Source: an uncultured Clostridia bacterium (lineage in GTDB: Bacteria; Bacillota; Clostridia; Oscillospirales; Acutalibacteraceae). Taken from it: a stretch of DNA of 64,000 nucleotides. The stretch is from the NCBI GenBank assembly GCA_937877675.1, contig CALEIS010000135.1, forward strand, positions 173,557-237,556, read 5' to 3'. The notes below the pieces were generated by a model. That model did not search any database. It saw nothing but the letters and a program-made list of their open reading frames with translations, and had not been told where the DNA came from. This document shows positions 1,672 to 39,981 of the stretch, in pieces (the first letter of the stretch is position 1; each line of letters begins with the position of its first letter). Position numbers and translations under genes: made by a program.

Positions 1672-4600
1672 ATGTCTTGGATTAGTACAAATACTACTAC
1701 TGATAATAAAGTTTATCCTAAACAAATTTCACAGGATGTTCTCTCATTCTATCACGGATTCAGTAAGACTCCTGTAGAACCTGAAATCAAAAATGGTGCT
1801 GCAACTGGTTATGCTGCAACAACACTTGCGAATGCCACAACAAAGAGTGGTCACACCGTTCTTGGCTCGGAAGTTTGGGCATCTGAACTTCCTTGGTTCG
1901 GTTTCGCTCCTAACAAAGATGTTGCTTCAACTCGTGTTTCTGGGATAACAAATAAAAACGACCTTATCCGTATAAATGATGTCGGTAAAGATTACATTTA
2001 TATCGGTAAAGGTGGAGAAACATTCACCAAAGCTACTTGGGATACCGTTTGGAAAGAAATCACTCTTACAAATGGTATGGAATTGGCTAACCAATATGGT
2101 GATAAAGTTCTTCGTTATTATGAGAAACAGAGGATGCAAGCTCTTGAGAGTGATAACAATGCTGGTATTGACTCTAAGGGTTATGCAACTCGTCTCTTCG
2201 TTGACGAATCAACTCATACCGCTGTAACTACAGTAGGTCAAGGTTCTGTTATTCCCCAGTTTGCTGCTGCTACCGATAGTATCAAAAACGGTCTTACTTC
2301 CAGTATTTTGAATCCTGTCGTTTACATTGATGGAACACAGAAAGTACCAGGTACACACTTTTATGACTACAATGTTTCAGGAACAATCCTCTGGGACTCA
2401 AACGTAAAGAGTAAAAATGTTACCATCACCTGCTTCCGTTATATTGGTAAATCAGTAACTGCAAAAACTGCTGAAATTGAATCTACAATTGAAGACCTTA
2501 AAATTACAGCAGGTGCAGGTATTACCGTAACTGATGGAACGAAGCAGAAAAAAGGTATTACTACACTTACTCTTGGTGGTTCTAATGGTGTTACTGTAGC
2601 AGTAAATGAATCAACTGGTGCTGTAACATTTGGTGTCGATACTGCTACAATCGCTACAACTGCTTCTGTAACAGCTATTAGCGATAGAATTTCTGCTGCT
2701 GCTTCCGATATTACTGCAACTAGTGAGAAACTTGTAACAGGTAAGGCTGTTTATGATTATGTTTCTGGTGCTACTCTTAATAGCGGTACACAGGGTGATA
2801 ATCAGATTCAGAACGCTTCTGGTGATACTGCTAACAAGCTCGTAACGGCTGCTCAAGTCAAGGAGTATGTAACTGAGAATGCTCAGGTTACTGTAACAGT
2901 TGGTGAAACTGATGTAACTTCTACAGGATTTGAATTCGCAGGTTCTACTGGTAGTGATGTTTCCTTGTCTGCTGCAATGGATGCAAATGGTAAGGTAACT
3001 TACTCTGCTACTCTTACTAAGGCTACTGTTGGTACTGACGGTAAGATTCTTACAGGTGATGAAAACAAGGCTGTAAGCGCAACCGATGCTAAGACTATCG
3101 TTGATACGTCTATCGCCGCTCTTTCTGCTACTGGTGGTGCAATTGCTACTCTTACAGAACGTGTTGGTCAAGCCGAATCTAATGCTGCTGCTTCTGCTAG
3201 TGCTGCTTCTGCTTCTCAGACTGCTGCTGAAGGAGCAAAGTCCGAAGCTGCTGCTGCTAAGACCGCTGCTCAGAATGCCCAAACCGCTGCTGAGGGTGCT
3301 CAGTCCGCTGCTCAGGCTGCTCAGGCTGCTTCTGAAGCTGCTAAGGGTGAAGCTTCTGCATCTGCTACTGCTGCATCTCAATCTGCTACTGCTGCTCAAG
3401 GTTCTGCTACATCTGCATCTCAATCTGCTTCCGCTGCATCTGCATCTCAGACCGCTGCTGAAGCTGCTCAGAGTGCTGCTGAGAGTGCTGCTGCTGAAGC
3501 AAAGGCTGCTAAGGAGTTTGTTGAAGCTACCGCAGAATGGCAAGCTGGTTCTGATGAAGAACTTGGTAACTTTACTGATGCTTCTGCAAGTGGTGTTGTA
3601 ACAGGTACAACTGTTAAGACCGTTGCTGATGAGGTATTGGCTCTCGCTAAGTCTTACTCTAACGGTCTTCACACAACAAGCGTAACATATCATGTAACCG
3701 ATACACTCCCAACTGTTCCAGCAGGTGAGGAAGAGAAATATAAGGGTAGAATCTATCTTGTTCTCACAGGTCTTGATGGAGTAGTTGCCGCCGATGGCGA
3801 CCGCATTGAATACATGTACGTCCAAGAAAATGGCGTATGGGGTTGGGAACAAATTGGTACTACTACTGCTGACCTTTCTGGTTATGCTAAGTCTGTAAAG
3901 ATTAATAGTTCAACTTATGCTGCAAGTGCTGATAATTCAGGTGCTCTTGACCTTGGTACTGTTGTAACAGGTTTGTATAATACACTTCCTACTGGTGTTA
4001 CTAGTGTTACTGGTGTTAATCTTGTAAATGCCAATTCTGTATATGCAGGTATTAATAATGGCATAATGGAAATTGGTGTTGCTGACGCTTCTGCTGATGG
4101 TAAGGGTCTTGTACAACTCGCTGCTAATGTTGCAGATGGTTCTACAACAGACGTTACTACTGCTAAGGCTGTAAAGGATTATGCTCAAAAGGCTCTTACT
4201 GTCAAGGATGGTCGTGGTTACAATGTAACAGAAAATGACTTGTGGGGTACTACTGCAACATTGGATGAAAATGGTAATCTTACCGTTGCTCATAATTGGG
4301 TAACTAATCCTAATGCTTCTAATAGTGTTGCTTGGAATACCTCAATTACTAAAGTTGAAGATAATGGGGCTTATACTTCTTCTAGCTCAATTGTGAACAT
4401 TCAAACTGACATGATAAAAAATGGTCAGTATATGTTCAAAGACTGTTCTGAACTTACCTCATTCTCCTCTGACATGCCTAATTTGACGAATGGTGATAGT
4501 ATGTTCCAAGACTGTTCCCATCTCACCTCATTCTCCTCTGACGTATCAAGATTGACTACGGGTTATAGTATGTTCTATCATTGTAGTGCTCTCACCGCAT

Positions 4601-20614: not shown

Positions 20615-20804
20615 AAATGTGTTTTGTTTAAGTTGCTTAAGAATAACCCTCATGAGCGTAGTTCCCATGAGGGGGGTTAGGGTACTTCCCTAACGGATTA
20701 CTAATAACTCCGCAATTTCACTTACGAAGTAGTGAAACTCCGCATTCATTGTTACTGTTCATGACCAGTAGAATGTTGAAGCCCAAGTATAACCTAGTTT
20801 TGTC

Positions 20805-20878
20805 AGTTATGGTGAGAATTGAACTCACGACTTTCCTACGCATCACCGTATTCAGTTCTACCACTGAACTACATAACT
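20805..20878 (-). tRNA. tRNA-like gene with non-canonical anticodon arm
   Basis: Good acceptor (agttatg/cataact), D arm (gttc/gaac) and T arm (gtgag-ttcaatt-ctcac). The anticodon region folds only as tacg-gtgatg-cgta, a 6- or 8-nt loop. Confidence 0.35.
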
Positions 20879-20891
20879 AACTGATTATAAG

Positions 20892-20975
20892 AGCCTTGGG
20901 TCAGATTTGAACTGACGTGCCCATTACGGGTCTCGATTACAAGTCGAGTGCAATCGACCACTATGCGACCAAGGC
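20892..20975 (-). tRNA. tRNA-Thr(UGU)-like with long (type II-like) variable arm
   Basis: Acceptor gccttgg/ccaaggc. Anticodon arm ctcga-cttgtaa-tcgag. About 15-nt variable arm acccgtaatgggcac. T arm gtcag-ttcaaat-ctgac. Confidence 0.55.
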
Positions 20976-21065: not shown

Positions 21066-21860
21066 TTATTCTATAAAAGTTTTAGCCTTCTTGATTGCTT
21101 CTTTTGGATTGTTATACACATCCTTCCAAATCAATCTCAATACTTCCCATCCATTTTCTTTAAGAAGAGCATCCTTACGCATGTCACGTTCTTTGTAATC
21201 TTGAAATCTTTGGTGTTGCTCACCATCAATCTCAATACATTTCTTCTTAGCAACCCATGCAAAGTCAAGCGAAAATCTTCCAAACGAATATTCTCTAATA
21301 TAGTCTTTGTCATCAAACTCATTCTCAATAACTGACATAAACCATTTTTCAGGGTAAGATGGTTCATTATTCCATCTACTCATGCCAATGTTATGTGCTC
21401 TGTTTTCAGAATGTGCTTTCTTCATTGACTCAGAGATTTTGTTTTTGGTATTATCTGTTAAAGTCTTACCATTACACCAAACTTCAATTTCTCCGTTAGC
21501 ATATCTTCGTTTTAGTTCTTCACTACCTTTACGAACACTTTCATCTGTCTCTTTAGTTAATCCTTTATTCCATGATGTTTTGCCACCATTTTTAGTAAAC
21601 TCAGGATGGATATTTGCTACATGTTCGTAAAGTTTTGCTCTACTGCCGAAGCATTCTCCACAATGAACACACTTCCATTTTGCTGCTCGTATGTTTGCTT
21701 CGTGAATACTGTTACGATTCACAATAGAGGGTAAATTACTCACACGATTCTTAACCTTATTGAGATTGGCTTTTGACCTACAAGACGCAGAACAAAATCT
21801 ACCAGACCCATAAGAGCCATCATGTTCTTTACCACATACTTCACATTGTTTCATGTTCAT
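21066..21860 (-). CDS. homing-endonuclease-like protein (Zn fingers + NUMOD3-like motifs + DUF559/Vsr-like nuclease)
   Basis: N-terminal CxxC...CxxxC and CxxC...H motifs. WNKGLTKET and WCNGKTLTD motifs. C-terminal FSLDFAW...IEIDGEQH...D...L...GWEVLR. Confidence 0.6.
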   Translation of the reverse strand: MNMKQCEVCGKEHDGSYGSGRFCSASCRSKANLNKVKNRVSNLPSIVNRNSIHEANIRAAKWKCVHCGECFGSRAKLYEHVANIHPEFTKNGGKTSWNKGLTKETDESVRKGSEELKRRYANGEIEVWCNGKTLTDNTKNKISESMKKAHSENRAHNIGMSRWNNEPSYPEKWFMSVIENEFDDKDYIREYSFGRFSLDFAWVAKKKCIEIDGEQHQRFQDYKERDMRKDALLKENGWEVLRLIWKDVYNNPKEAIKKAKTFIE

Positions 21861-21915: not shown

Positions 21916-22245
21916 CTCGGGTGGTAGGGGTCGAACCTACGACCTAGTGATTACCCAAAAGAATGATAAATGTTTTATCTTTCTTCCGTGGACTTTCTCT
22001 TCATCATGCCATCAATGATGGTTTAGATGCACCGTGTAAAGTCTCTGCACATAAAAGAACGATTGCTCGTTCAATCTTGCTCAGGATTGGGATAAGATTT
22101 ATAGGCACTTATCCGTTCCCTGACTTAGCGATGTTTTCACCTCAAAGTTTCCAATGAAGGCTGCCTGTGCCTCGATTATTGCATAACACGCTTATAATCA
22201 ACATGTTCTGACAGTCACCCGCTCGTTCCACTGAGCTACACCCGA
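21916..22245 (-). tRNA. tRNA-Asn(GUU) (alternatively Thr-GGU) interrupted by a group I intron
   Basis: 5' exon tcgggtgtagctcagtggaacgagcgggtgactgt (22211-22245). 3' exon taatcactaggtcgtaggttcgacccctaccacccgag (21916-21953). Joined, they give a perfect cloverleaf with loop ctgttaa. Confidence 0.7.
21954..22210 (-). ncRNA. group I intron in tRNA anticodon loop (~257 nt, no ORF)
   Basis: The 5' exon ends in U and the intron ends in G. The internal ..gcagagacuuuacacggugc.. resembles the P7/J8-7 core of tRNA-resident IC3 introns, as recalled from memory. Confidence 0.6.
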
Positions 22246-22521: not shown

Positions 22522-22719
22522 TCAAGCTAGAAGTTTCAAGAAAAATGCTAAACCGTAACAGATGTAGATTTTATAATGAAGTGATTTCATTGACTCTTCT
22601 ATTTCATCAGGGGAAACACCAAACTCTTCAATAAGTCTGTCAGTGCTTTTCCACGTTCTCCATAGAAGGAATGTGAGCAATAGACCTATACCGATTAGTA
22701 TGTATGCTATTGTTATCAT
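22522..22719 (-). CDS. small membrane protein
   Basis: 65 aa with an N-terminal TM helix. It overlaps the stop of the HNH gene. Confidence 0.45.
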   Translation of the reverse strand: MITIAYILIGIGLLLTFLLWRTWKSTDRLIEEFGVSPDEIEESMKSLHYKIYICYGLAFFLKLLA

Positions 22720-23477
22720 TTTATGTTATATTTTTCTTTCCACTTTCTAACTGCATTATCAGATACTTTGAAATGTCTGCCCAATGCCAACATAGATTTG
22801 TGAATTTTCATCGCTTCTCGTAATTCTTCCTCACTTGGTATGTTTCTTGCGTTCCAATTATCATAACATTTTCTACAACAAAATCTTTTCTGTTTAGTAG
22901 AAGATAACTGTTTGTTACATACTTCACAAAAACGTGGTTCTGCTTCAACTGTTACTTTTTTCTCCCTTGGTTTTCTCACAGGTTTTTCAATAGTTGGTGT
23001 AATCTTCTTTACAACTTTTGCTTTTTCCTTATGAGAAATTGTATTTGCACCTCTGTAATGTTCTGTTAATGCGTGACAATTAGGACAAACAATCTGTAAG
23101 TTCTCAAATGAGTTATCCAAACGATTGCCGTTCTTATGATGTAGTTCAAGTGGTATCTCTACACCTTGCCACTCTTTCAAGCCACATACTTCACATACTT
23201 TTTCTTTAAGATTGAATTGGAAAATTCGTCTTTTGAGATGATAACTTGATAACATTTTTTCACCTCTAAAAACTTTTTCCAAATCTTCCCTAGTAAAAGA
23301 TTGACTTGAAACTTTTTTACATCCCCTTCCCCCTTGATTTGGTTGAAAACACCCATACTTTTTAGCAAGGCGTGCAAATGCGTTATACGAAATTCCTAAC
23401 GAACCTGCTGCACCTGTTATAGTTTTTCTTTCTTCAAGTGCTTCTCGTATTATGTTTTCTTCTATATCGTATGCCAT
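22716..23477 (-). CDS. HNH homing endonuclease with N-terminal HTH
   Basis: ELHHKNGNRLDNSFENLQIVCPNCHALT, plus a second C-terminal CxxC/HTH region. Confidence 0.8.
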   Translation of the reverse strand: MAYDIEENIIREALEERKTITGAAGSLGISYNAFARLAKKYGCFQPNQGGRGCKKVSSQSFTREDLEKVFRGEKMLSSYHLKRRIFQFNLKEKVCEVCGLKEWQGVEIPLELHHKNGNRLDNSFENLQIVCPNCHALTEHYRGANTISHKEKAKVVKKITPTIEKPVRKPREKKVTVEAEPRFCEVCNKQLSSTKQKRFCCRKCYDNWNARNIPSEEELREAMKIHKSMLALGRHFKVSDNAVRKWKEKYNIK

Positions 23478-28999: not shown

Positions 29000-29084
29000 C
29001 GGGTGCAGAGGGACTCGAACCCCCAAGGGCATCCCTGCCCCAGCAATTTTCAAGATTGTGTCTTCATCCAGCCAGATTACACCC
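29000..29084 (-). tRNA. tRNA-Ser(UGA)
   Basis: Type II. Loop cttgaaa. Long variable arm ctggggcagggatgcccttg. Confidence 0.75.
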
Positions 29085-29807: not shown

Positions 29808-31340
29808 TTAGTCAACAAGCGTAATGTCAGCATAACGCTTACCATTAAGAACCTGTAACATGAAGTCAGCAGGAGTCTTACCTGAGAGAATTTGCTCAAA
29901 CATACCAGGCTTACAACCACCAACAAGAATTGCACCGTACTGATGCTGAGTTACAGGAAGATTACCGTAATCACGCTGAGCTGCATTCCAGAATACCAAC
30001 TTAGGTACTCGATACCCTGCACAAGAATACATAGTTCTGATACGGTCATATGCTGCTTCATTATTACCACCATATACACAAGCATCAAACTGCATATCAG
30101 AGATAATCACGATTGCTTCAGGCATCTCCTCAGCAGGAAGATTATGTCTCTTTGCTGCATTGAGTACCAACTCAAAGGTAGCAATTAGATTTGTAGAACC
30201 ACCCCAATCAGCAGAAGCAATGTGCTGTACCTTCTTCTTAAGTCCCCACTTGTCATCAAATTCAATGAGATGAGGATTAGACTCAAATGTAATGAACTTA
30301 TTCTTGAACACTCCCTTGTTATGCTCAGACACATACATACCAAGTGAGATTGCTACACCAATAGGCTTAGGATTATCACCCCAAGTCATTGAACCTGAAG
30401 TATCTACTACTGCAAGCCAATTCTTATGTGCTGCATCTCCAAAGTAATCAGGGAGAGAACGCCACATGTTGTCAAGCTGCTTTTCCTCAGTCTTACCTAC
30501 AGAATAGTCAAAGAACTTATTGACAATCTCATAAGGATAGAGAGTCTTGACATTCACCTTTGCCTCCTTGCAGTTTACATCTCCACGCTCAATAGCCTTG
30601 GAAACTGCATCAATGTGAGCACGATAACGCTCACCGTCCTTCTCATGGAAGCACTTACGATACTTCATGTTGGCGTTAGAAGGAACTTCGTTATAGTCAA
30701 AGGTGTAATCCTTGTTCGTAAGATAAGTCTCAAGAATGTTGATACGCTTACGAAGCATGGAAAGCGTCTTACGGTAATGCTTTTCTGTTACTCCCAACTC
30801 CTTGCACAACATCTTACCATAAAGGCGAGTGCGCTTAGAAGAAGCATTTACGGAAGGAAGCCACTTAGCCATAATTGAGATAGGCTTATCAGACTTATAG
30901 TTAGTAATGTCTGACTTCAACTGTTCAACTATGAACTGAATAATCTGCTTGTCAAGGTCATCATGAACTCCAAACAAACAGAACAAATCATCCCATCGAC
31001 CATAAGTGGGAATGTGAGAGATGATGTTAGAGTTAATAAATGTCTTAGGCTCAAGTGTGGCTACCTCATGGATACCCTTGCGGAATACCTCACGCTCACC
31101 CTGTCCACCGTTGCCACGAACATCACGAAGATAGAACAAACAACGAACTGTGGACAACTTGTCCTCTAACCATGCACTCCTTACCATAGTACGAATCCCA
31201 TTAGGATTCTTACGATAAGAAGCACCCTTAGCGAATAAATCGAGAACTGAATTCAACGTAGACTTCCAAGCAGCCATGCCGTTTGTAGTCTCAGTCAAAT
31301 TATCCGTCTCCTTGATTGCATCAAATAATGCGTTTCCCAT
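29808..31340 (-). CDS. Ro60-like protein: DUF2828-type helical domain + C-terminal vWA with MIDAS
   Basis: The N-terminus TETTNGMAAWKSTLNSVLDLF...LFYLRDVRGNGGQGERE matches my recollection of DUF2828. The C-terminus has VVDTSGSM (DxSxS MIDAS). This is the same two-domain layout as Ro60/Rsr. Confidence 0.6.
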   Translation of the reverse strand: MGNALFDAIKETDNLTETTNGMAAWKSTLNSVLDLFAKGASYRKNPNGIRTMVRSAWLEDKLSTVRCLFYLRDVRGNGGQGEREVFRKGIHEVATLEPKTFINSNIISHIPTYGRWDDLFCLFGVHDDLDKQIIQFIVEQLKSDITNYKSDKPISIMAKWLPSVNASSKRTRLYGKMLCKELGVTEKHYRKTLSMLRKRINILETYLTNKDYTFDYNEVPSNANMKYRKCFHEKDGERYRAHIDAVSKAIERGDVNCKEAKVNVKTLYPYEIVNKFFDYSVGKTEEKQLDNMWRSLPDYFGDAAHKNWLAVVDTSGSMTWGDNPKPIGVAISLGMYVSEHNKGVFKNKFITFESNPHLIEFDDKWGLKKKVQHIASADWGGSTNLIATFELVLNAAKRHNLPAEEMPEAIVIISDMQFDACVYGGNNEAAYDRIRTMYSCAGYRVPKLVFWNAAQRDYGNLPVTQHQYGAILVGGCKPGMFEQILSGKTPADFMLQVLNGKRYADITLVD

Positions 31341-31376: not shown

Positions 31377-31521
31377 TCAATTCATTCGCCCTTGTCAGGA
31401 TAACTCTTCATATTTGAACAAGTCACTTTTTCTCCACGTTTTATAACCCAAATATAATGTGATTAGATTTGCTGTATGTGACTTTTATTAGGAATTACCC
31501 TAACAAGGATGAATGAATTAA
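31377..31521 (-). ncRNA. ACAGCAAAU-box RNA 3: long 27-bp stem enclosing a 7-bp helix, box and Pro-like anticodon hairpin
   Basis: Outer arms 31377-31403 and 31495-31521. Four of the five non-identical columns are G:U pairs only in the minus-strand RNA. Inner element 31420-31484: aagtcac-at-ACAGCAAATCTAA..ttata-tttgggt-tataa..gtgactt. It lies in the 5' leader of the Ro-like gene. Confidence 0.55.
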
Positions 31522-31522
31522 C

Positions 31523-31660
31523 AAGACCCCATTATTACATTTTTACTGCGCTCTACCAACTGAGCTACTCCCATCATTGCAACAGGAGGCAGGACTCGAA
31601 CCTGCGACATCAGGCTTACAAGGCATATGTTATAATTGATTGATTTGCTGTGTGGGTCTT
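31523..31660 (-). ncRNA. ACAGCAAAU-box RNA 4: circularly permuted tRNA mimic (YrlA/Y-RNA-like)
   Basis: Order is: aagaccc-ac-ACAGCAAATCAA..; hairpin tatgc-cttgtaa-gcctg; atgtc; T arm gcagg-ttcgagt-cctgc; acceptor-like hairpin ctcctgt-tgcaatg-atgggag; ta; D arm gctc-agttggta-gagc; ...gggtctt. Confidence 0.6.
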
Positions 31661-32170: not shown

Positions 32171-32209
32171 GCACTTTTTGAAAGTTTTTTGAACTTTTTT
32201 CTTGAAAAA

Positions 32210-32281
32210 CACTCCATGCGGGATTTGAACCCACCTTCACGATTTTAGAGACCGTTGTCCTAACCACTAGACGAATGGAGC
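32210..32281 (-). tRNA. amber suppressor tRNA (anticodon CUA)
   Basis: gctccat-tc-gtct-agtggtta-ggac-a-acggt-CTCTAAA-atcgt-gaag-gtggg-ttcaaat-cccgc-atggagt-g. Canonical 7-nt loop with U33 and CUA at positions 34-36 (plus-strand tag at 32246-48). Confidence 0.8.
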
Positions 32282-32288
32282 ATGAAAG

Positions 32289-33422: not shown

Positions 33423-33899
33423 TTATAATTTATTGACATCAAGTAATCCATAATGAGCTTCTCTATGACAGTTTGCACATAAAAGAACACATTTGGATAC
33501 TTCATCATTTATAGTATCCATTGAAAGTTGACCAAGTTTTGCTATATTCAATTCAAAACTTTTTTCATCAGGGTTTTTATGATGAAATTCCAATGCTTGA
33601 GGACAACGGTTGTAACCACATGCCATACATTTACCGCCAAACTTGGTATCAATTATTTGTTGTTTGCGTTCTCTTGCACGATTACGATTACTTACAGTTA
33701 TTCGCTTATTTCTTTTTTTACGAAGAAATTCTTTTTCTTCCTCCGTATAATCTTTTACATTGAAAGGTCTATATTTAGTTTTCAATCCATATTTTCCTAA
33801 CCAATGACGAACCGAACTAAAACTTTTATCAAGTTCTTTACAGATGTCACGGATAGAAAGATTCTTGTCAATTAGTTTTTGTAATTCTTCTCGTTCCAT
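33423..33899 (-). CDS. HNH homing endonuclease with N-terminal HTH
   Basis: LEFHHKNPDEKSFELN...LLCANCHREAHYG. Confidence 0.8.
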   Translation of the reverse strand: MEREELQKLIDKNLSIRDICKELDKSFSSVRHWLGKYGLKTKYRPFNVKDYTEEEKEFLRKKRNKRITVSNRNRARERKQQIIDTKFGGKCMACGYNRCPQALEFHHKNPDEKSFELNIAKLGQLSMDTINDEVSKCVLLCANCHREAHYGLLDVNKL

Positions 33900-33952
33900 A
33901 TCTTTATTTAGTTCACTTTACAAATAAAGGAGAGATTTTATTACTGATTTAG

Positions 33953-37833: not shown

Positions 37834-39981
37834 TTAGGCGTTATGATTCCAAACAGAACCTTCAGCAGGAGTTACTGTTACAGCAGTAGGAGCAGTAACC
37901 TGTACAGCAGGGCTGATTGGGAATGCATAGGAAGGAGCAGTACCAGTGGTTTCTGCATGAGCAGCATAACCGTTAGGATACATCTTATTGTCGTTCTGAA
38001 CACCAGGGTTGGAGAAGTCGTCAATAAGGATTACATGGTAGTAGAGGTGAGAACCGAAGATATTGTCCATTACACCGTAACGAGTCATAAGACCTACGTG
38101 TGGTGAGAAGGAGTTAGTATCGGTTGCAGTCTGAACCATGATAGGAATGTATGGGCAGTAAATGATACCTGCATCATACGTATCAGCACCCTTATAACCA
38201 AGCATACAATAGTTAGGAAGTTTAACTTCCTGCTCAGTTGTGTCGAACATATCGCCATAACCCATACCGTAGTCATCAGTGCTGTAAACGGCAGTTCTCT
38301 CATCAATGTAAACATTGAACTTGTTACCACCAAGAGTACCAGCAGCAGCGGTCTGAGCATTGTTAAGCTCGATGGTGTTGTTTACCTGCATAGGAACATA
38401 GTCCTCAAGCATCTGAAGAAGAGCAGCAACGTCAGGAGTACATACGATGAAGTTAGCAGCACCACGGTGGTTGCGAACACGCATTCTCATAGCCATCTTG
38501 ATAATGAACTGATAGAATGCACGAGCACGCTCACCCATCCAACGAGCGTCAGCGAGCTTACCAGACCATACAGACCATTCATTGTGCTTGAGAGCTGTGA
38601 AGAGCATACGAACAGTCATTTCACGGTCGATTTCAGCCTGAAGCTCATAGCTCATCTGCTGAGTAGCTTCGGTGTCGATGTCAATACCGTTGGTGTTCTT
38701 GAGGTCTTCCTGAGTTTCAAGTGTCCAAGAGGTTGAAAGTCTACGAGTACCAGCTTCAACAGCCTGCTTCTCGAAACCGAAGGAGGTACGAGCGATAGCA
38801 CCAGTAGCTTCAAAAGCATGAACGCGAGCAGCGATACCAGTATCCTCAAGACGGAACTGCCAACGACCACCTGCAAGAGGCTGGAGGAGTTGCTTGTCCT
38901 GAGCACCTGTGAAGCGGGTATCAAGACGCTGATAACCCATTTCAGAGTTACCCAAGTCCCACTTACCAGTTACTTCATTGAACTTGATGTCAGAAATCTG
39001 AACGTCACCCTTAGCAGGGTCAGAGATACCAACAATCTTAGTACCATCTGTAGCATCCTCTACACGCTTTTCAGCAGCAGTCTAAATTTTGTCAAGAAGT
39101 TCTGTCTCGGATGAATCAACACCACGCTGAGCAGCAACAACAACAGCTTCCTTAATCTTGGCTTCTGTGATGGTTGTAAGTGTAGCATAATCAACTTCAC
39201 CAATAATCTGTGTAAGAACAGGGTGAACGATGTACTTCTTATTCTTTTCAGAAGCAGCCTTTGTACTTACGAAAGCAGGGTTTGCAACGATTGCAGGGAA
39301 ACTCTGTGGGAAACCATTACCAACAACAGTTACAAGAGTAGCACTACCTTCGGCTGTTGAAGTAGCGTCAGTAATAGTAAGCTTAGCCTTGGTCTCTACA
39401 CCACGGATACCCTGAGCGGTATACTCAGTAGCAGCAGAACCATTGTATACAGTATCACGCTGAGCATATTCAGTTGTTTCACCAGAAACACGAGGACTGT
39501 GAACGTGCTCTGTGGAGCTGTCACCAAGAGCGTTAGCACCCTTGAGGTAACGATAACGGATAGCGAATGCAAGAGCTACAGGGCCAGGCATAGGCTGAAC
39601 ACCAACCGTTTCATTGCTCATAAGAGCAGGATAGATACGGCGAACCATAGGAAGAATAGTCGTTGGGTTACGCATGTCACCAGGAGCATAGAAGTCACTG
39701 TTGCCAAGCTCACCACCGTGAAGACCATTCTGAGGACCGAACATAGCGGTTGTCATTGCAGGACTGTTCTCATTGAGCCAACGCATCTGGTTCTCAAGAA
39801 GCATAGCGGTGTTGTTACGAACAGCCTTGGAGCGAATAGGAGCGAAACCAGCAGTACACTCAAGAAGCTCAGACCAGTTCTTTACTGCCTTGCGAGTACG
39901 CTGACCATTTTTCTGCGTCTGGGTAAGGCGAGCCTTAGGAGCAGCCTGTGCAGTACGCTTTGTTTTAGTAATAATAGCCAT
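37834..39981 (-). CDS. major capsid protein, T4 gp23-like, with one in-frame TAG
   Basis: Track ORFs 39082..39981 and 37834..38955 share a frame. They are joined through TAG 39082-84 with no other stop (..ELLDKI*TAAEKRVED..). The N-terminal part has gp23-type motifs LLENQ..WL, PMVRRIYPALMSNETVGVQPMPGPVALAFAIRY. Confidence 0.75.

Follow-up and report, generated by a model that had tools for sequence, protein, structure and literature searches.

A probable group I intron within the anticodon of a phage tRNA-Asn(GUU) gene

A 64,000-nt stretch of DNA assigned to an uncultured Clostridia bacterium (contig CALEIS010000135.1, positions 173,557 to 237,556; hereafter, the window) contains a phage tRNA array in which a tRNA-Asn(GUU) gene occupies positions 21916..22245 of the minus strand. 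The gene consists of a 35-nt 5' exon, a 257-nt intron and a 38-nt 3' exon, and is very probably split between U35 and U36 by an IC3-like group I intron that lacks an open reading frame (ORF). The assignment draws on the sequence and its helices, on homology and covariation, and on the register of the splice sites. All coordinates given below for the gene and its intron refer to the minus strand.

The 5' exon (22211..22245), which provides tRNA nucleotides 1–35 and reads TCGGGTGTAGCTCAGTGGAACGAGCGGGTGACTGT from 22245 to 22211, contains the acceptor strand UCGGGUG, the D arm, the 5' strand GGUGA of the anticodon stem and C32 U33 G34 U35. The 3' exon (21916..21953), which provides nucleotides 36–73 and reads TAATCACTAGGTCGTAGGTTCGACCCCTACCACCCGAG from 21953 to 21916, contains U36 A37 A38, the 3' strand UCACU of the stem, the variable loop AGGUC, the T arm, the acceptor strand CACCCGA and G73. 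An initial annotation, made from the letters of the window, had described two half-tRNAs 257 nt apart that join into a perfect cloverleaf, and both halves are present where it placed them. The joined exons form a canonical 73-nt cloverleaf with the acceptor stem UCGGGUG/CACCCGA, the D arm GCUC-AGUGGAAC-GAGC, the anticodon stem GGUGA/UCACU and the T arm GUAGG-UUCGACC-CCUAC. The discriminator is G73, and CCA is absent from the gene. ARAGORN calls the joined exons tRNA-Asn(gtt). The split gene is missed by default ARAGORN and by the Rfam tRNA model in a search of the window.

The body of the tRNA is of the Asn type. U1:A72 and G73 are Asn identity features, as in the sequence of Escherichia coli tRNA-Asn. 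A scan of viral contigs with the 3' half of the split tRNA retrieved 14 intact tRNA-Asn(GTT) genes that have the identical anticodon arm, GGGTGACTGTTAATCACT, together with U1 and G73, whereas the viral tRNA-Thr(UGU) genes with the same 3' half differ in the 5' strand and have G1 and U73; the body is therefore assigned to Asn. The array agrees with the initial annotation on this point as well, since it has no second GUU anticodon among its ~31 tRNAs, as searched with ARAGORN and Rfam, and Thr is covered by a tRNA-Thr(UGU) at 20891..20975.

The intron (21954..22210), in which nucleotide n corresponds to window position 22211-n, was delineated with the Rfam group I model RF00028, a family profile and folding. 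In a 601-nt search, model positions 1–253 of RF00028 align to 21983..22197 with 27.7 bits and an E value of 4.6e-5. The aligned blocks comprise AAGUCAGGGAAC (J3/4, P4 and J4/5), CAAUCCUGAGC (P4' and P6), GUGCAGAGACUUUAC (J6/7, P7 and J7/3) and GAUGAAGAGAAAGUCC (J8/7 and P7'), the last of which fits the consensus. The segment GCAGAGACUUUACACGGUGC, which had been singled out as resembling a catalytic core, is located in the insert and corresponds to the P7 5' strand, J7/3 and the P3 3' strand. The minimum free energy of the intron is -68.7 kcal/mol (z = -3.15 with respect to dinucleotide shuffles). As had been proposed, the intron is ORF-less: no sense-strand ORF of at least 40 aa occurs within 21954..22210, and the only ORFs are antisense and unsupported.

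Helices P1 to P9 were placed by hand and agree with RNAfold. The 5' strand of P1 is formed by exon nucleotides C32 U33 G34 U35 (22211..22214), with the 5' splice site after U35, and pairs with the internal guide G46 G47 C48 A49 G50 (22161..22165), which lies directly before P2. C32–U35 pairs with G47–G50 (CUGU/GCAG) with a U35·G47 wobble, and the helix is extended by C1–G46. L1 measures 45 nt and holds a hairpin (U10–U17 with A32–A39, inner stem GCGU/AUGC; 22172..22201) that was drawn by hand and from RNAfold alternatives. P2 (C52–G59 with C64–G71; 22140..22159) is capped by a GAAA tetraloop. P3 is formed by C78–G82 (CAUCG; 22129..22133) and C177–G181 (CGGUG; 22030..22034), which occupy homologous alignment columns. 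P4 (UCAGGG/UCCUGA, U88–G93 with U125–A130), supported by the RF00028 alignment and RNAfold, and P5 (GGAUAAG/CUUAUCC, G97–G103 with C115–C121) lie within 22081..22123 and are joined by J4/5 AAC and J5/4 CAA; P5 is a simple hairpin, with no P5abc.

The remaining helices complete the core. RNAfold places P6 (GC../..GU) and P6a (GAACGA-GCAA-UCGUUC) at 22049..22080, P8 (CAUC/GAUG, C182–C185 with G206–G209) with its distal stem CCAUC/GAUGG at 22002..22029, and P9, a long hairpin with an ACA loop (G224–A237 with U241–U254), at 21957..21987. P7, the guanosine-binding helix, was taken from the RF00028 alignment. Its 5' strand comprises G166, the bulged A167 and G168 A169 C170 U171 (22040..22045), and its 3' strand A217–C221 (AGUCC; 21990..21994) is preceded by J8/7 AAGAGAA. 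P3 and P7 interleave in a pseudoknot, and the guanosine site is predicted at G168–C220, beside bulged A167 and with a conserved J8/7. The tail G255 G256 precedes the terminal guanosine, omega G257 (21954), and the 3' splice site lies before U36. The 5' exon thus ends in U and the insert in G, both of which had been noted initially.

Relatives of the intron were sought in metagenome contigs, GTDB genomes and viral contigs with a 27-nt core pattern taken from it, TCAGGGAA..AATCCTGAGC..GCAGAGACT, which gave at least 120 matches in each set. Of the 120 metagenome matches listed, 75 contain split tRNAs according to ARAGORN with introns allowed, and 34 to 54 are tRNA-Asn genes with an intron at U35/U36 after junction correction. 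The 121 GTDB matches listed include 24 of the tRNA-Asn type, 44 Azoarcus-type tRNA(CAU) introns at 36/37 and 16 cyanobacterial tRNA-Leu(UAA) introns. The co-retrieval of these two groups with the window intron by a single pattern supports the IC3-like core that the initial annotation had proposed. Among the matches listed, Asn introns occur in Elusimicrobia, Nitrospira (Nitrospirae), Acidobacteriota, Planctomycetota, Omnitrophota and Margulisiibacteriota, as well as in Binatia, Oligoflexia, Clostridia, Aminicenantes and deltaproteobacterial metagenome-assembled genomes. The labels Thr, Tyr, Gln and Arg that ARAGORN attaches to some of the intron-bearing tRNAs were rejected as artefacts of junction ambiguity on Asn-type bodies.

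The family has a uniform architecture at its splice sites. The upstream exon ends in CUGU and the downstream exon starts with UAA, with a G directly before UAA in every member, and GCAG(C) stands directly before P2, paired with (G)CUGU, in every Asn intron of the family. P1 of the window intron is therefore assigned to CUGU and G47–G50. The length of L1 varies from 4 to more than 100 nt. A profile hidden Markov model built from 21 metagenomic introns, with the window intron excluded, yields a single match in the window (nhmmer, 21987..22166, E = 7.3e-11). The closest family members among the matches listed (L277, L249 and L190) are found in bacterial chromosomes beside dnaX-recR, and because of this location of L277 and L249 the phage intron is placed in a bacterial lineage. 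It was probably inherited or acquired with, or into, the tRNA-Asn gene from a bacterial lineage in which the family, apparently a large and undescribed one, is common.

Covariation was analyzed in an alignment of 34 tRNA-Asn introns (A3), comprising the window intron, its relative L185, 19 metagenomic and 13 GTDB sequences. All 34 sequences have CUGU/GCAG with its splice-site U·G, and the extension pair of P1 covaries (AU 19, GC 5, CG 4, UA 3). RNAalifold recovers the anticodon stem, P1, P2, P3, P4, P5, P6, P6a, P8, P9.0 and P9, with compensatory changes in 35 of the 52 consensus pairs. When P7 is added, 97.9% of the cells hold standard pairs, a level that none of 500 column shuffles reaches (78.4% in shuffles). 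The covariation score is 0.523, versus 0.154 in shuffles and 0.03 to 0.09 when the partners are slid by 1 to 3 columns. Covarying helices include P2 (6/6 pairs), P3 (4/5 pairs), P5, P6, P6a, P8, P9 and P9.0, and the P7 5' strand is invariant (34/34). MAFFT misplaced the segment of the window intron that spans P3' and P8, and these cells were counted as gaps. Aligned by hand, P3 of the window intron (CAUCG/CGGUG) differs from that of its nearest relative, L277 (GCGGG/CCCGC), at 4/5 pairs, all of which remain paired. The RF00028 match from end to end, the full set of helices P1 to P9 and the family covariation in those helices bear out the initial assignment to group I.

The same split gene, with 97.3% identity, was found in the 2.4-kb metagenome contig Ga0233386_1006521 (L185). 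Nine substitutions separate the two introns, and five of these, at four base pairs, preserve pairing: G38A converts U11·G38 to U-A in the L1 hairpin, U53C converts U·G to C-G in P2, C154U converts G-C to G·U in P6a, and C194U with G198A replaces C-G by U-A in P8, a double compensatory change. Three further substitutions are located in loops. As judged from these two sequences, the pattern of divergence indicates ongoing selection on the fold and argues against a decaying relic.

Several points weigh against the group I assignment. Exon ligation is a prediction from the DNA sequence. The scan with RF00028, proposed at the outset as a check, gave a divided outcome, with the significant match confined to the local 601-nt search: over the whole window the model is reported neither at gathering nor at E <= 0.05, and 27.7 bits lies below the gathering score of 50, as a result of which both the intron and the tRNA are invisible to ordinary annotation. 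The model is a broad one, and the low score is that of an intron with divergent peripheral helices and a complete core. Introns of the IC3 class use GNRA tetraloops in L2 and L9 for tertiary docking. The GAAA of L2 fits this, but the window intron has an ACA triloop as L9, where most relatives have GAAA or GUAA; the GCAA loop of P6a might compensate. P2 contains two U·U mismatches, and the remaining substitution in L185, U248A, opens one pair of P9. Finally, the search pattern was derived from the window intron and demands a fixed P4, P7 5' strand and P6 base. The invariance of P4 and P7 is therefore uninformative, and the evidence comes from the other helices; the profile E value of 7.3e-11 is likewise inflated by pattern-based retrieval.

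Some of these features would also be expected if the intron were a decayed relic that splices poorly or not at all, with the tRNA-Asn gene a pseudogene and the phage relying on the tRNA-Asn of its host. The score below gathering, the L9 without GNRA and the mismatches in P2 are compatible with decay, and so are the unusually large insertion in L1 and the existence of a viral contig (L130) whose tRNA-Asn has a mere 50-nt insert at the same site, with no possible ribozyme. However, every element of the core is intact in the window intron, from the bulged A of P7 and a consensus J8/7 to the adenines of J4/5, omega G and the splice-site U·G. The divergence of L185 preserves structure, including the double change in P8, and both exons still form a perfect cloverleaf. 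A relic is thus considered quite unlikely.

The position of the splice sites offers a second alternative, in which the same intron is spliced 2 nt upstream, after U33 and ending at G255, to give tRNA-Thr(GGU). An exon ending in U and an intron ending in G are found in both registers. ARAGORN calls tRNA-Thr(ggt) when the junction of the joined exons is moved by 2 nt, and selects this register, Thr(ggt) i(34,257), on the unspliced DNA when introns are allowed. Nevertheless, a U·G wobble is required at the 5' splice site of group I introns, and U33 forms a Watson-Crick pair with A49, so that U35 alone makes the wobble. CUGU/GCAG is present in all 34 homologues, most of which end in G before UAA and lack the GG ambiguity; the Thr and Tyr calls made on homologues are the junction artefacts noted above. 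The U1:A72 pair and G73 of the window tRNA also differ from the G1 and U73 of the viral tRNA-Thr genes. The preference of the initial annotation for Asn is upheld by the guide, the Asn-type body and the 14 intact Asn arms. An alternative P1, which pairs UGU with G29 C30 A31 and is accompanied by a hairpin A4–U11/A19–U26, was discarded in favour of the family guide GCAG directly before P2. The location of the U·G on U35, and not on U33, rules out this P1 along with the Thr register, which we regard as highly improbable.

A third alternative, that the insert is no ribozyme but a fragment of a mobile element or a protein-spliced intron of the bulge-helix-bulge type that happens to resemble a group I core, has only the sub-threshold Rfam score in its favour and is effectively refuted by the full-length RF00028 alignment with its complete helix set, the RNAalifold consensus, family covariation far above the shuffled and slid controls and a site and guide shared by dozens of independent genomes; bacteria and phages are not known to have bulge-helix-bulge splicing endonucleases.

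With tRNA-Asn(GUU) and a cut at U35/U36 as the preferred reading, what we infer from the sequence about the catalysis, timing and in vivo efficiency of splicing is as follows. The gene would be transcribed as part of the minus-strand tRNA array, and the intron would fold into P1 to P9, with C32–U35 paired to the guide G47–G50 and the U35·G47 wobble at the cleavage site. Free guanosine or GTP, bound in P7 next to bulged A167, is expected to attack the bond after U35. Omega G257 would then enter the same pocket, and the 3'-OH of U35 would attack the bond after G257, joining U35 to U36 and restoring the anticodon G34-U35-U36. The predicted ligated junction reads ...GGGUGACUGU joined to UAAUCACU... 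No P10 is anticipated, and the anticodon stem GGUGA/UCACU presumably aligns the exons, as it does in the pre-tRNAs of Anabaena and Azoarcus. Maturation would be completed by RNase P, 3' trimming and the addition of CCA. A canonical P10 was tried and rejected: the nucleotide 5' of the guide is unconserved, and A37 would face A45. As a separate observation, U11–A16 of the intron (UGAUUA; 22195..22200) is perfectly complementary to the start of the 3' exon, UAAUCA (21948..21953), and the other strand of the L1 hairpin, AUAAUCGA (22172..22179), resembles the 3' junction GUAAUCAC; this arrangement is kept in L185. The complementarity between L1 and the 3' exon may represent an alternative P10-like pairing or the trace of a target-site duplication.

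The window is of phage origin, as the initial annotation had assumed. It encodes a gp23-type major capsid protein that is ~30% identical to the versions of T4-like phages, as well as NrdD, a Ro-like protein and several homing endonucleases, and contains ~31 tRNA genes (ARAGORN and Rfam), all on the minus strand. Among 50,697 phage records, blastn with the 401-nt region gave no match, nor did a search of viral contigs for an exact 20-nt core string, a contig search with two neighbouring ORFs or a search for related loci with the metallophosphoesterase. The sole match from megablast of the 15 kb around the site was one of 49 nt to Lak megaphages, located within the tRNA array. Except for the 2.4-kb L185, the phage therefore has no close relative in the sets searched.

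The gene 55 nt downstream of the tRNA (21066..21860, minus strand) encodes a 264-aa protein with a zinc finger and a Vsr-like DUF559 domain (Pfam DUF559, 3.1e-11; phrog_9084, 'homing endonuclease'), and the one 470 nt upstream (22716..23477, minus strand) encodes a 253-aa HNH endonuclease with a Cys-rich segment and a C-terminal helix-turn-helix (phrog_10822, 1.4e-32). Both are putative free-standing homing endonucleases. An intron-encoded homing endonuclease is absent, given that the intron has no sense ORF of at least 40 aa and the endonuclease genes lie outside it. L185 keeps the downstream DUF559 gene and lacks the upstream HNH gene, which is therefore viewed as a separate mobile insertion. 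A link between the DUF559 endonuclease and the intron is something that we only infer.

Homologues of the HNH protein stand beside the split tRNA-Asn genes of three viral contigs (L130, L414 and L475). In a search with a single profile they were also found beside the intact viral tRNA-Asn genes of L128/L152, L137 and L147, and a second copy of the family is present in the tRNA array of the window (33426..33917, minus strand). A specific association of the HNH family with interrupted tRNA-Asn genes was accordingly rejected; the family goes with phage tRNA-Asn genes and tRNA arrays, in viral contigs that are unrelated to each other, and not with the intron specifically. A tentative and rather doubtful proposal is that the ORF-less intron and the free-standing HNH and DUF559 genes form a unit of homing and immunity ('collaborative homing'). 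An endonuclease would cleave the intron-less tRNA-Asn genes of competing phages, much as T4 SegB cuts that of T2L, and might also cut the host gene. In the gene of the phage itself the recognition site would be interrupted by the intron, which repair would copy into the rival.

Split tRNA genes occur in other viral contigs too. In IMG/VR, at least two further contigs, L414 (361 kb) and L475 (77 kb), have tRNA-Asn introns, of 199 and 207 nt respectively. With that of the lake metagenome contig L269, these form a tight sub-lineage of very short introns (198 to 207 nt, minimal P8; alignment A4). This sub-lineage is distinct from the window intron, and phage tRNA-Asn genes have therefore acquired or kept the intron at least twice. 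Among the matches listed, a few other viral contigs have split tRNAs of the Leu(UAA), CAU and other types. The core pattern is found in at least 120 IMG/VR contigs (L399-L518), and ~109 of the matches listed are outside tRNA genes, which implies that other phage genes widely contain closely related cores. With a looser P7/J8-7 pattern, viral matches numbered at least 120; none of those listed resembles the window intron and none is in a tRNA, save a dubious tRNA-SeC call (L109). The contig L130 (IMGVR_UViG_3300048591_000147), a 315-kb huge-phage contig, has at 1816..1938 a tRNA-Asn(GTT) that is likewise interrupted at 35/36, by an insert of 50 nt. A group I ribozyme would not fit into so short an insert, which holds the T-arm-like hairpin GATCAGTTCGAATCTGATA. 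An HNH gene (2122..3048), homologous to that of the window (E 2e-17), follows this tRNA.

Several further features of the window were recorded in and around the tRNA array, all on the minus strand. A YrlA-like Y RNA (31515..31633; 43.9 bits, gathering score 69, E 1.8e-6) is located immediately upstream of a Ro/TROVE-like gene on the same strand (29808..31340; DUF2828, DUF7788 and VWA domains; phrog_850, 'RNA-binding protein'), and the pair has the appearance of a Ro60 and Y RNA module carried by the phage within the array. A suppressor tRNA with anticodon CUA (32209..32282), labelled 'Pyl' by ARAGORN, looks Gln-like (U1:A72, G73). The reading frame of the gp23-like capsid gene (37834..39981) is continuous apart from one in-frame TAG (39082..39084); TAG probably encodes an amino acid in this phage, and the ORF calls made in the window with translation table 11 are therefore fragmented. 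The tRNA at 20804..20878 (47.9 bits with Rfam, no ARAGORN call) has normal acceptor, D and T arms and an irregular anticodon arm, with a 4-bp stem TACG/CGTA, a 6-nt loop GTGATG and three extra nucleotides, and may be degenerate or unconventional. A tRNA-Ser(UGA) with a long variable arm and the loop CTTGAAA (29001..29084) is missed by ARAGORN and matched by Rfam weakly, as tRNA-Sec (36.7 bits).

Among the closest known systems is the tRNA-Ile(CAU) intron of Azoarcus, which is likewise of group I, compact and ORF-less and interrupts the anticodon loop of a bacterial-type tRNA. Both this and the window intron have a short P1 made from anticodon-loop nucleotides, a GAAA loop on P2, no P5abc and a very similar core, and the anticodon stem replaces P10, presumably in the window intron as well. 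By contrast, the Azoarcus intron is bacterial and chromosomal and interrupts tRNA-Ile(CAU) at 36/37, with a guide GUG that pairs with CAU, whereas the window intron interrupts Asn(GUU) at 35/36, with a guide GCAG that pairs with CUGU, and is further set apart by its hairpin-bearing L1 of 45 nt and by an L9 that is not GNRA. The tRNA-Leu(UAA) introns also interrupt the anticodon itself. They presumably share the core motifs UCAGGGAA, AAUCCUGAGC, GUGCAGAGACU and AGAGA.AGUCC, which is partly supported by the 16 that the core pattern co-retrieved among the 121 GTDB matches listed. They differ in being inserted between U34 and A35, in their restriction to cyanobacteria and plastids and in a longer P6 region. 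According to Zaug et al. (1993), as cited in PMC3984707, their splicing needs exon pairing in the anticodon stem.

The introns in phage protein genes (T4 td, nrdB and nrdD; Twort; SPO1; Bastillevirinae) are also self-splicing group I introns of tailed phages, often tied to HNH or GIY-YIG homing endonucleases that are intron-encoded or free-standing. They differ from the window intron in their protein-coding hosts, in belonging mostly to subgroup IA2 and in often having an ORF. T4 SegB is a free-standing homing endonuclease of a tRNA cluster whose preferred cut site lies inside the T2L tRNA-Asn gene (PMC2330249). Like the HNH and DUF559 genes that flank tRNA-Asn in the window phage, itself a distant T4-like phage, its gene is located among the tRNA genes of a T4-like phage; SegB differs in being a GIY-YIG enzyme with no intron involved. 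By analogy, SegB is a precedent for endonucleases that would target a tRNA-Asn gene.

The tRNA introns named in the reviews consulted are those of Leu(UAA), fMet, Ile(CAU) and Arg(CCU) only. According to Hausner, Hafez and Edgell (2014; PMC3984707), all phage introns observed by then were in protein-coding genes, despite the many tRNA genes of phages. No report of group I introns in tRNA-Asn, or in a tRNA gene of any phage, was found in the accessible literature, the subscription journals being largely outside the scope of the search. Within this literature, the mechanism is ordinary, and the host gene, the 35/36 site and the phage setting are new.

The split genes of the window, L185, L414 and L475 contradict the 2014 generalisation, as phage tRNA genes can carry group I introns, and a large family of tRNA-Asn(GUU) introns at 35/36 is absent from the reviews. 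Default tRNA finders and Rfam gathering thresholds miss both the intron and the tRNA, so that genomes are wrongly reported to be without tRNA-Asn; the same detection problem has been described for fMet and Ile2 with tRNAscan-SE 2.0 (PMC8450103). As small natural ribozymes with a variable P1 loop, these introns constitute new material for ribozyme work. Collaborative homing, if true, would account for the retention of a tRNA-gene intron by phages, and for the presence of one lineage of tRNA-Asn introns across many bacterial phyla and phages.

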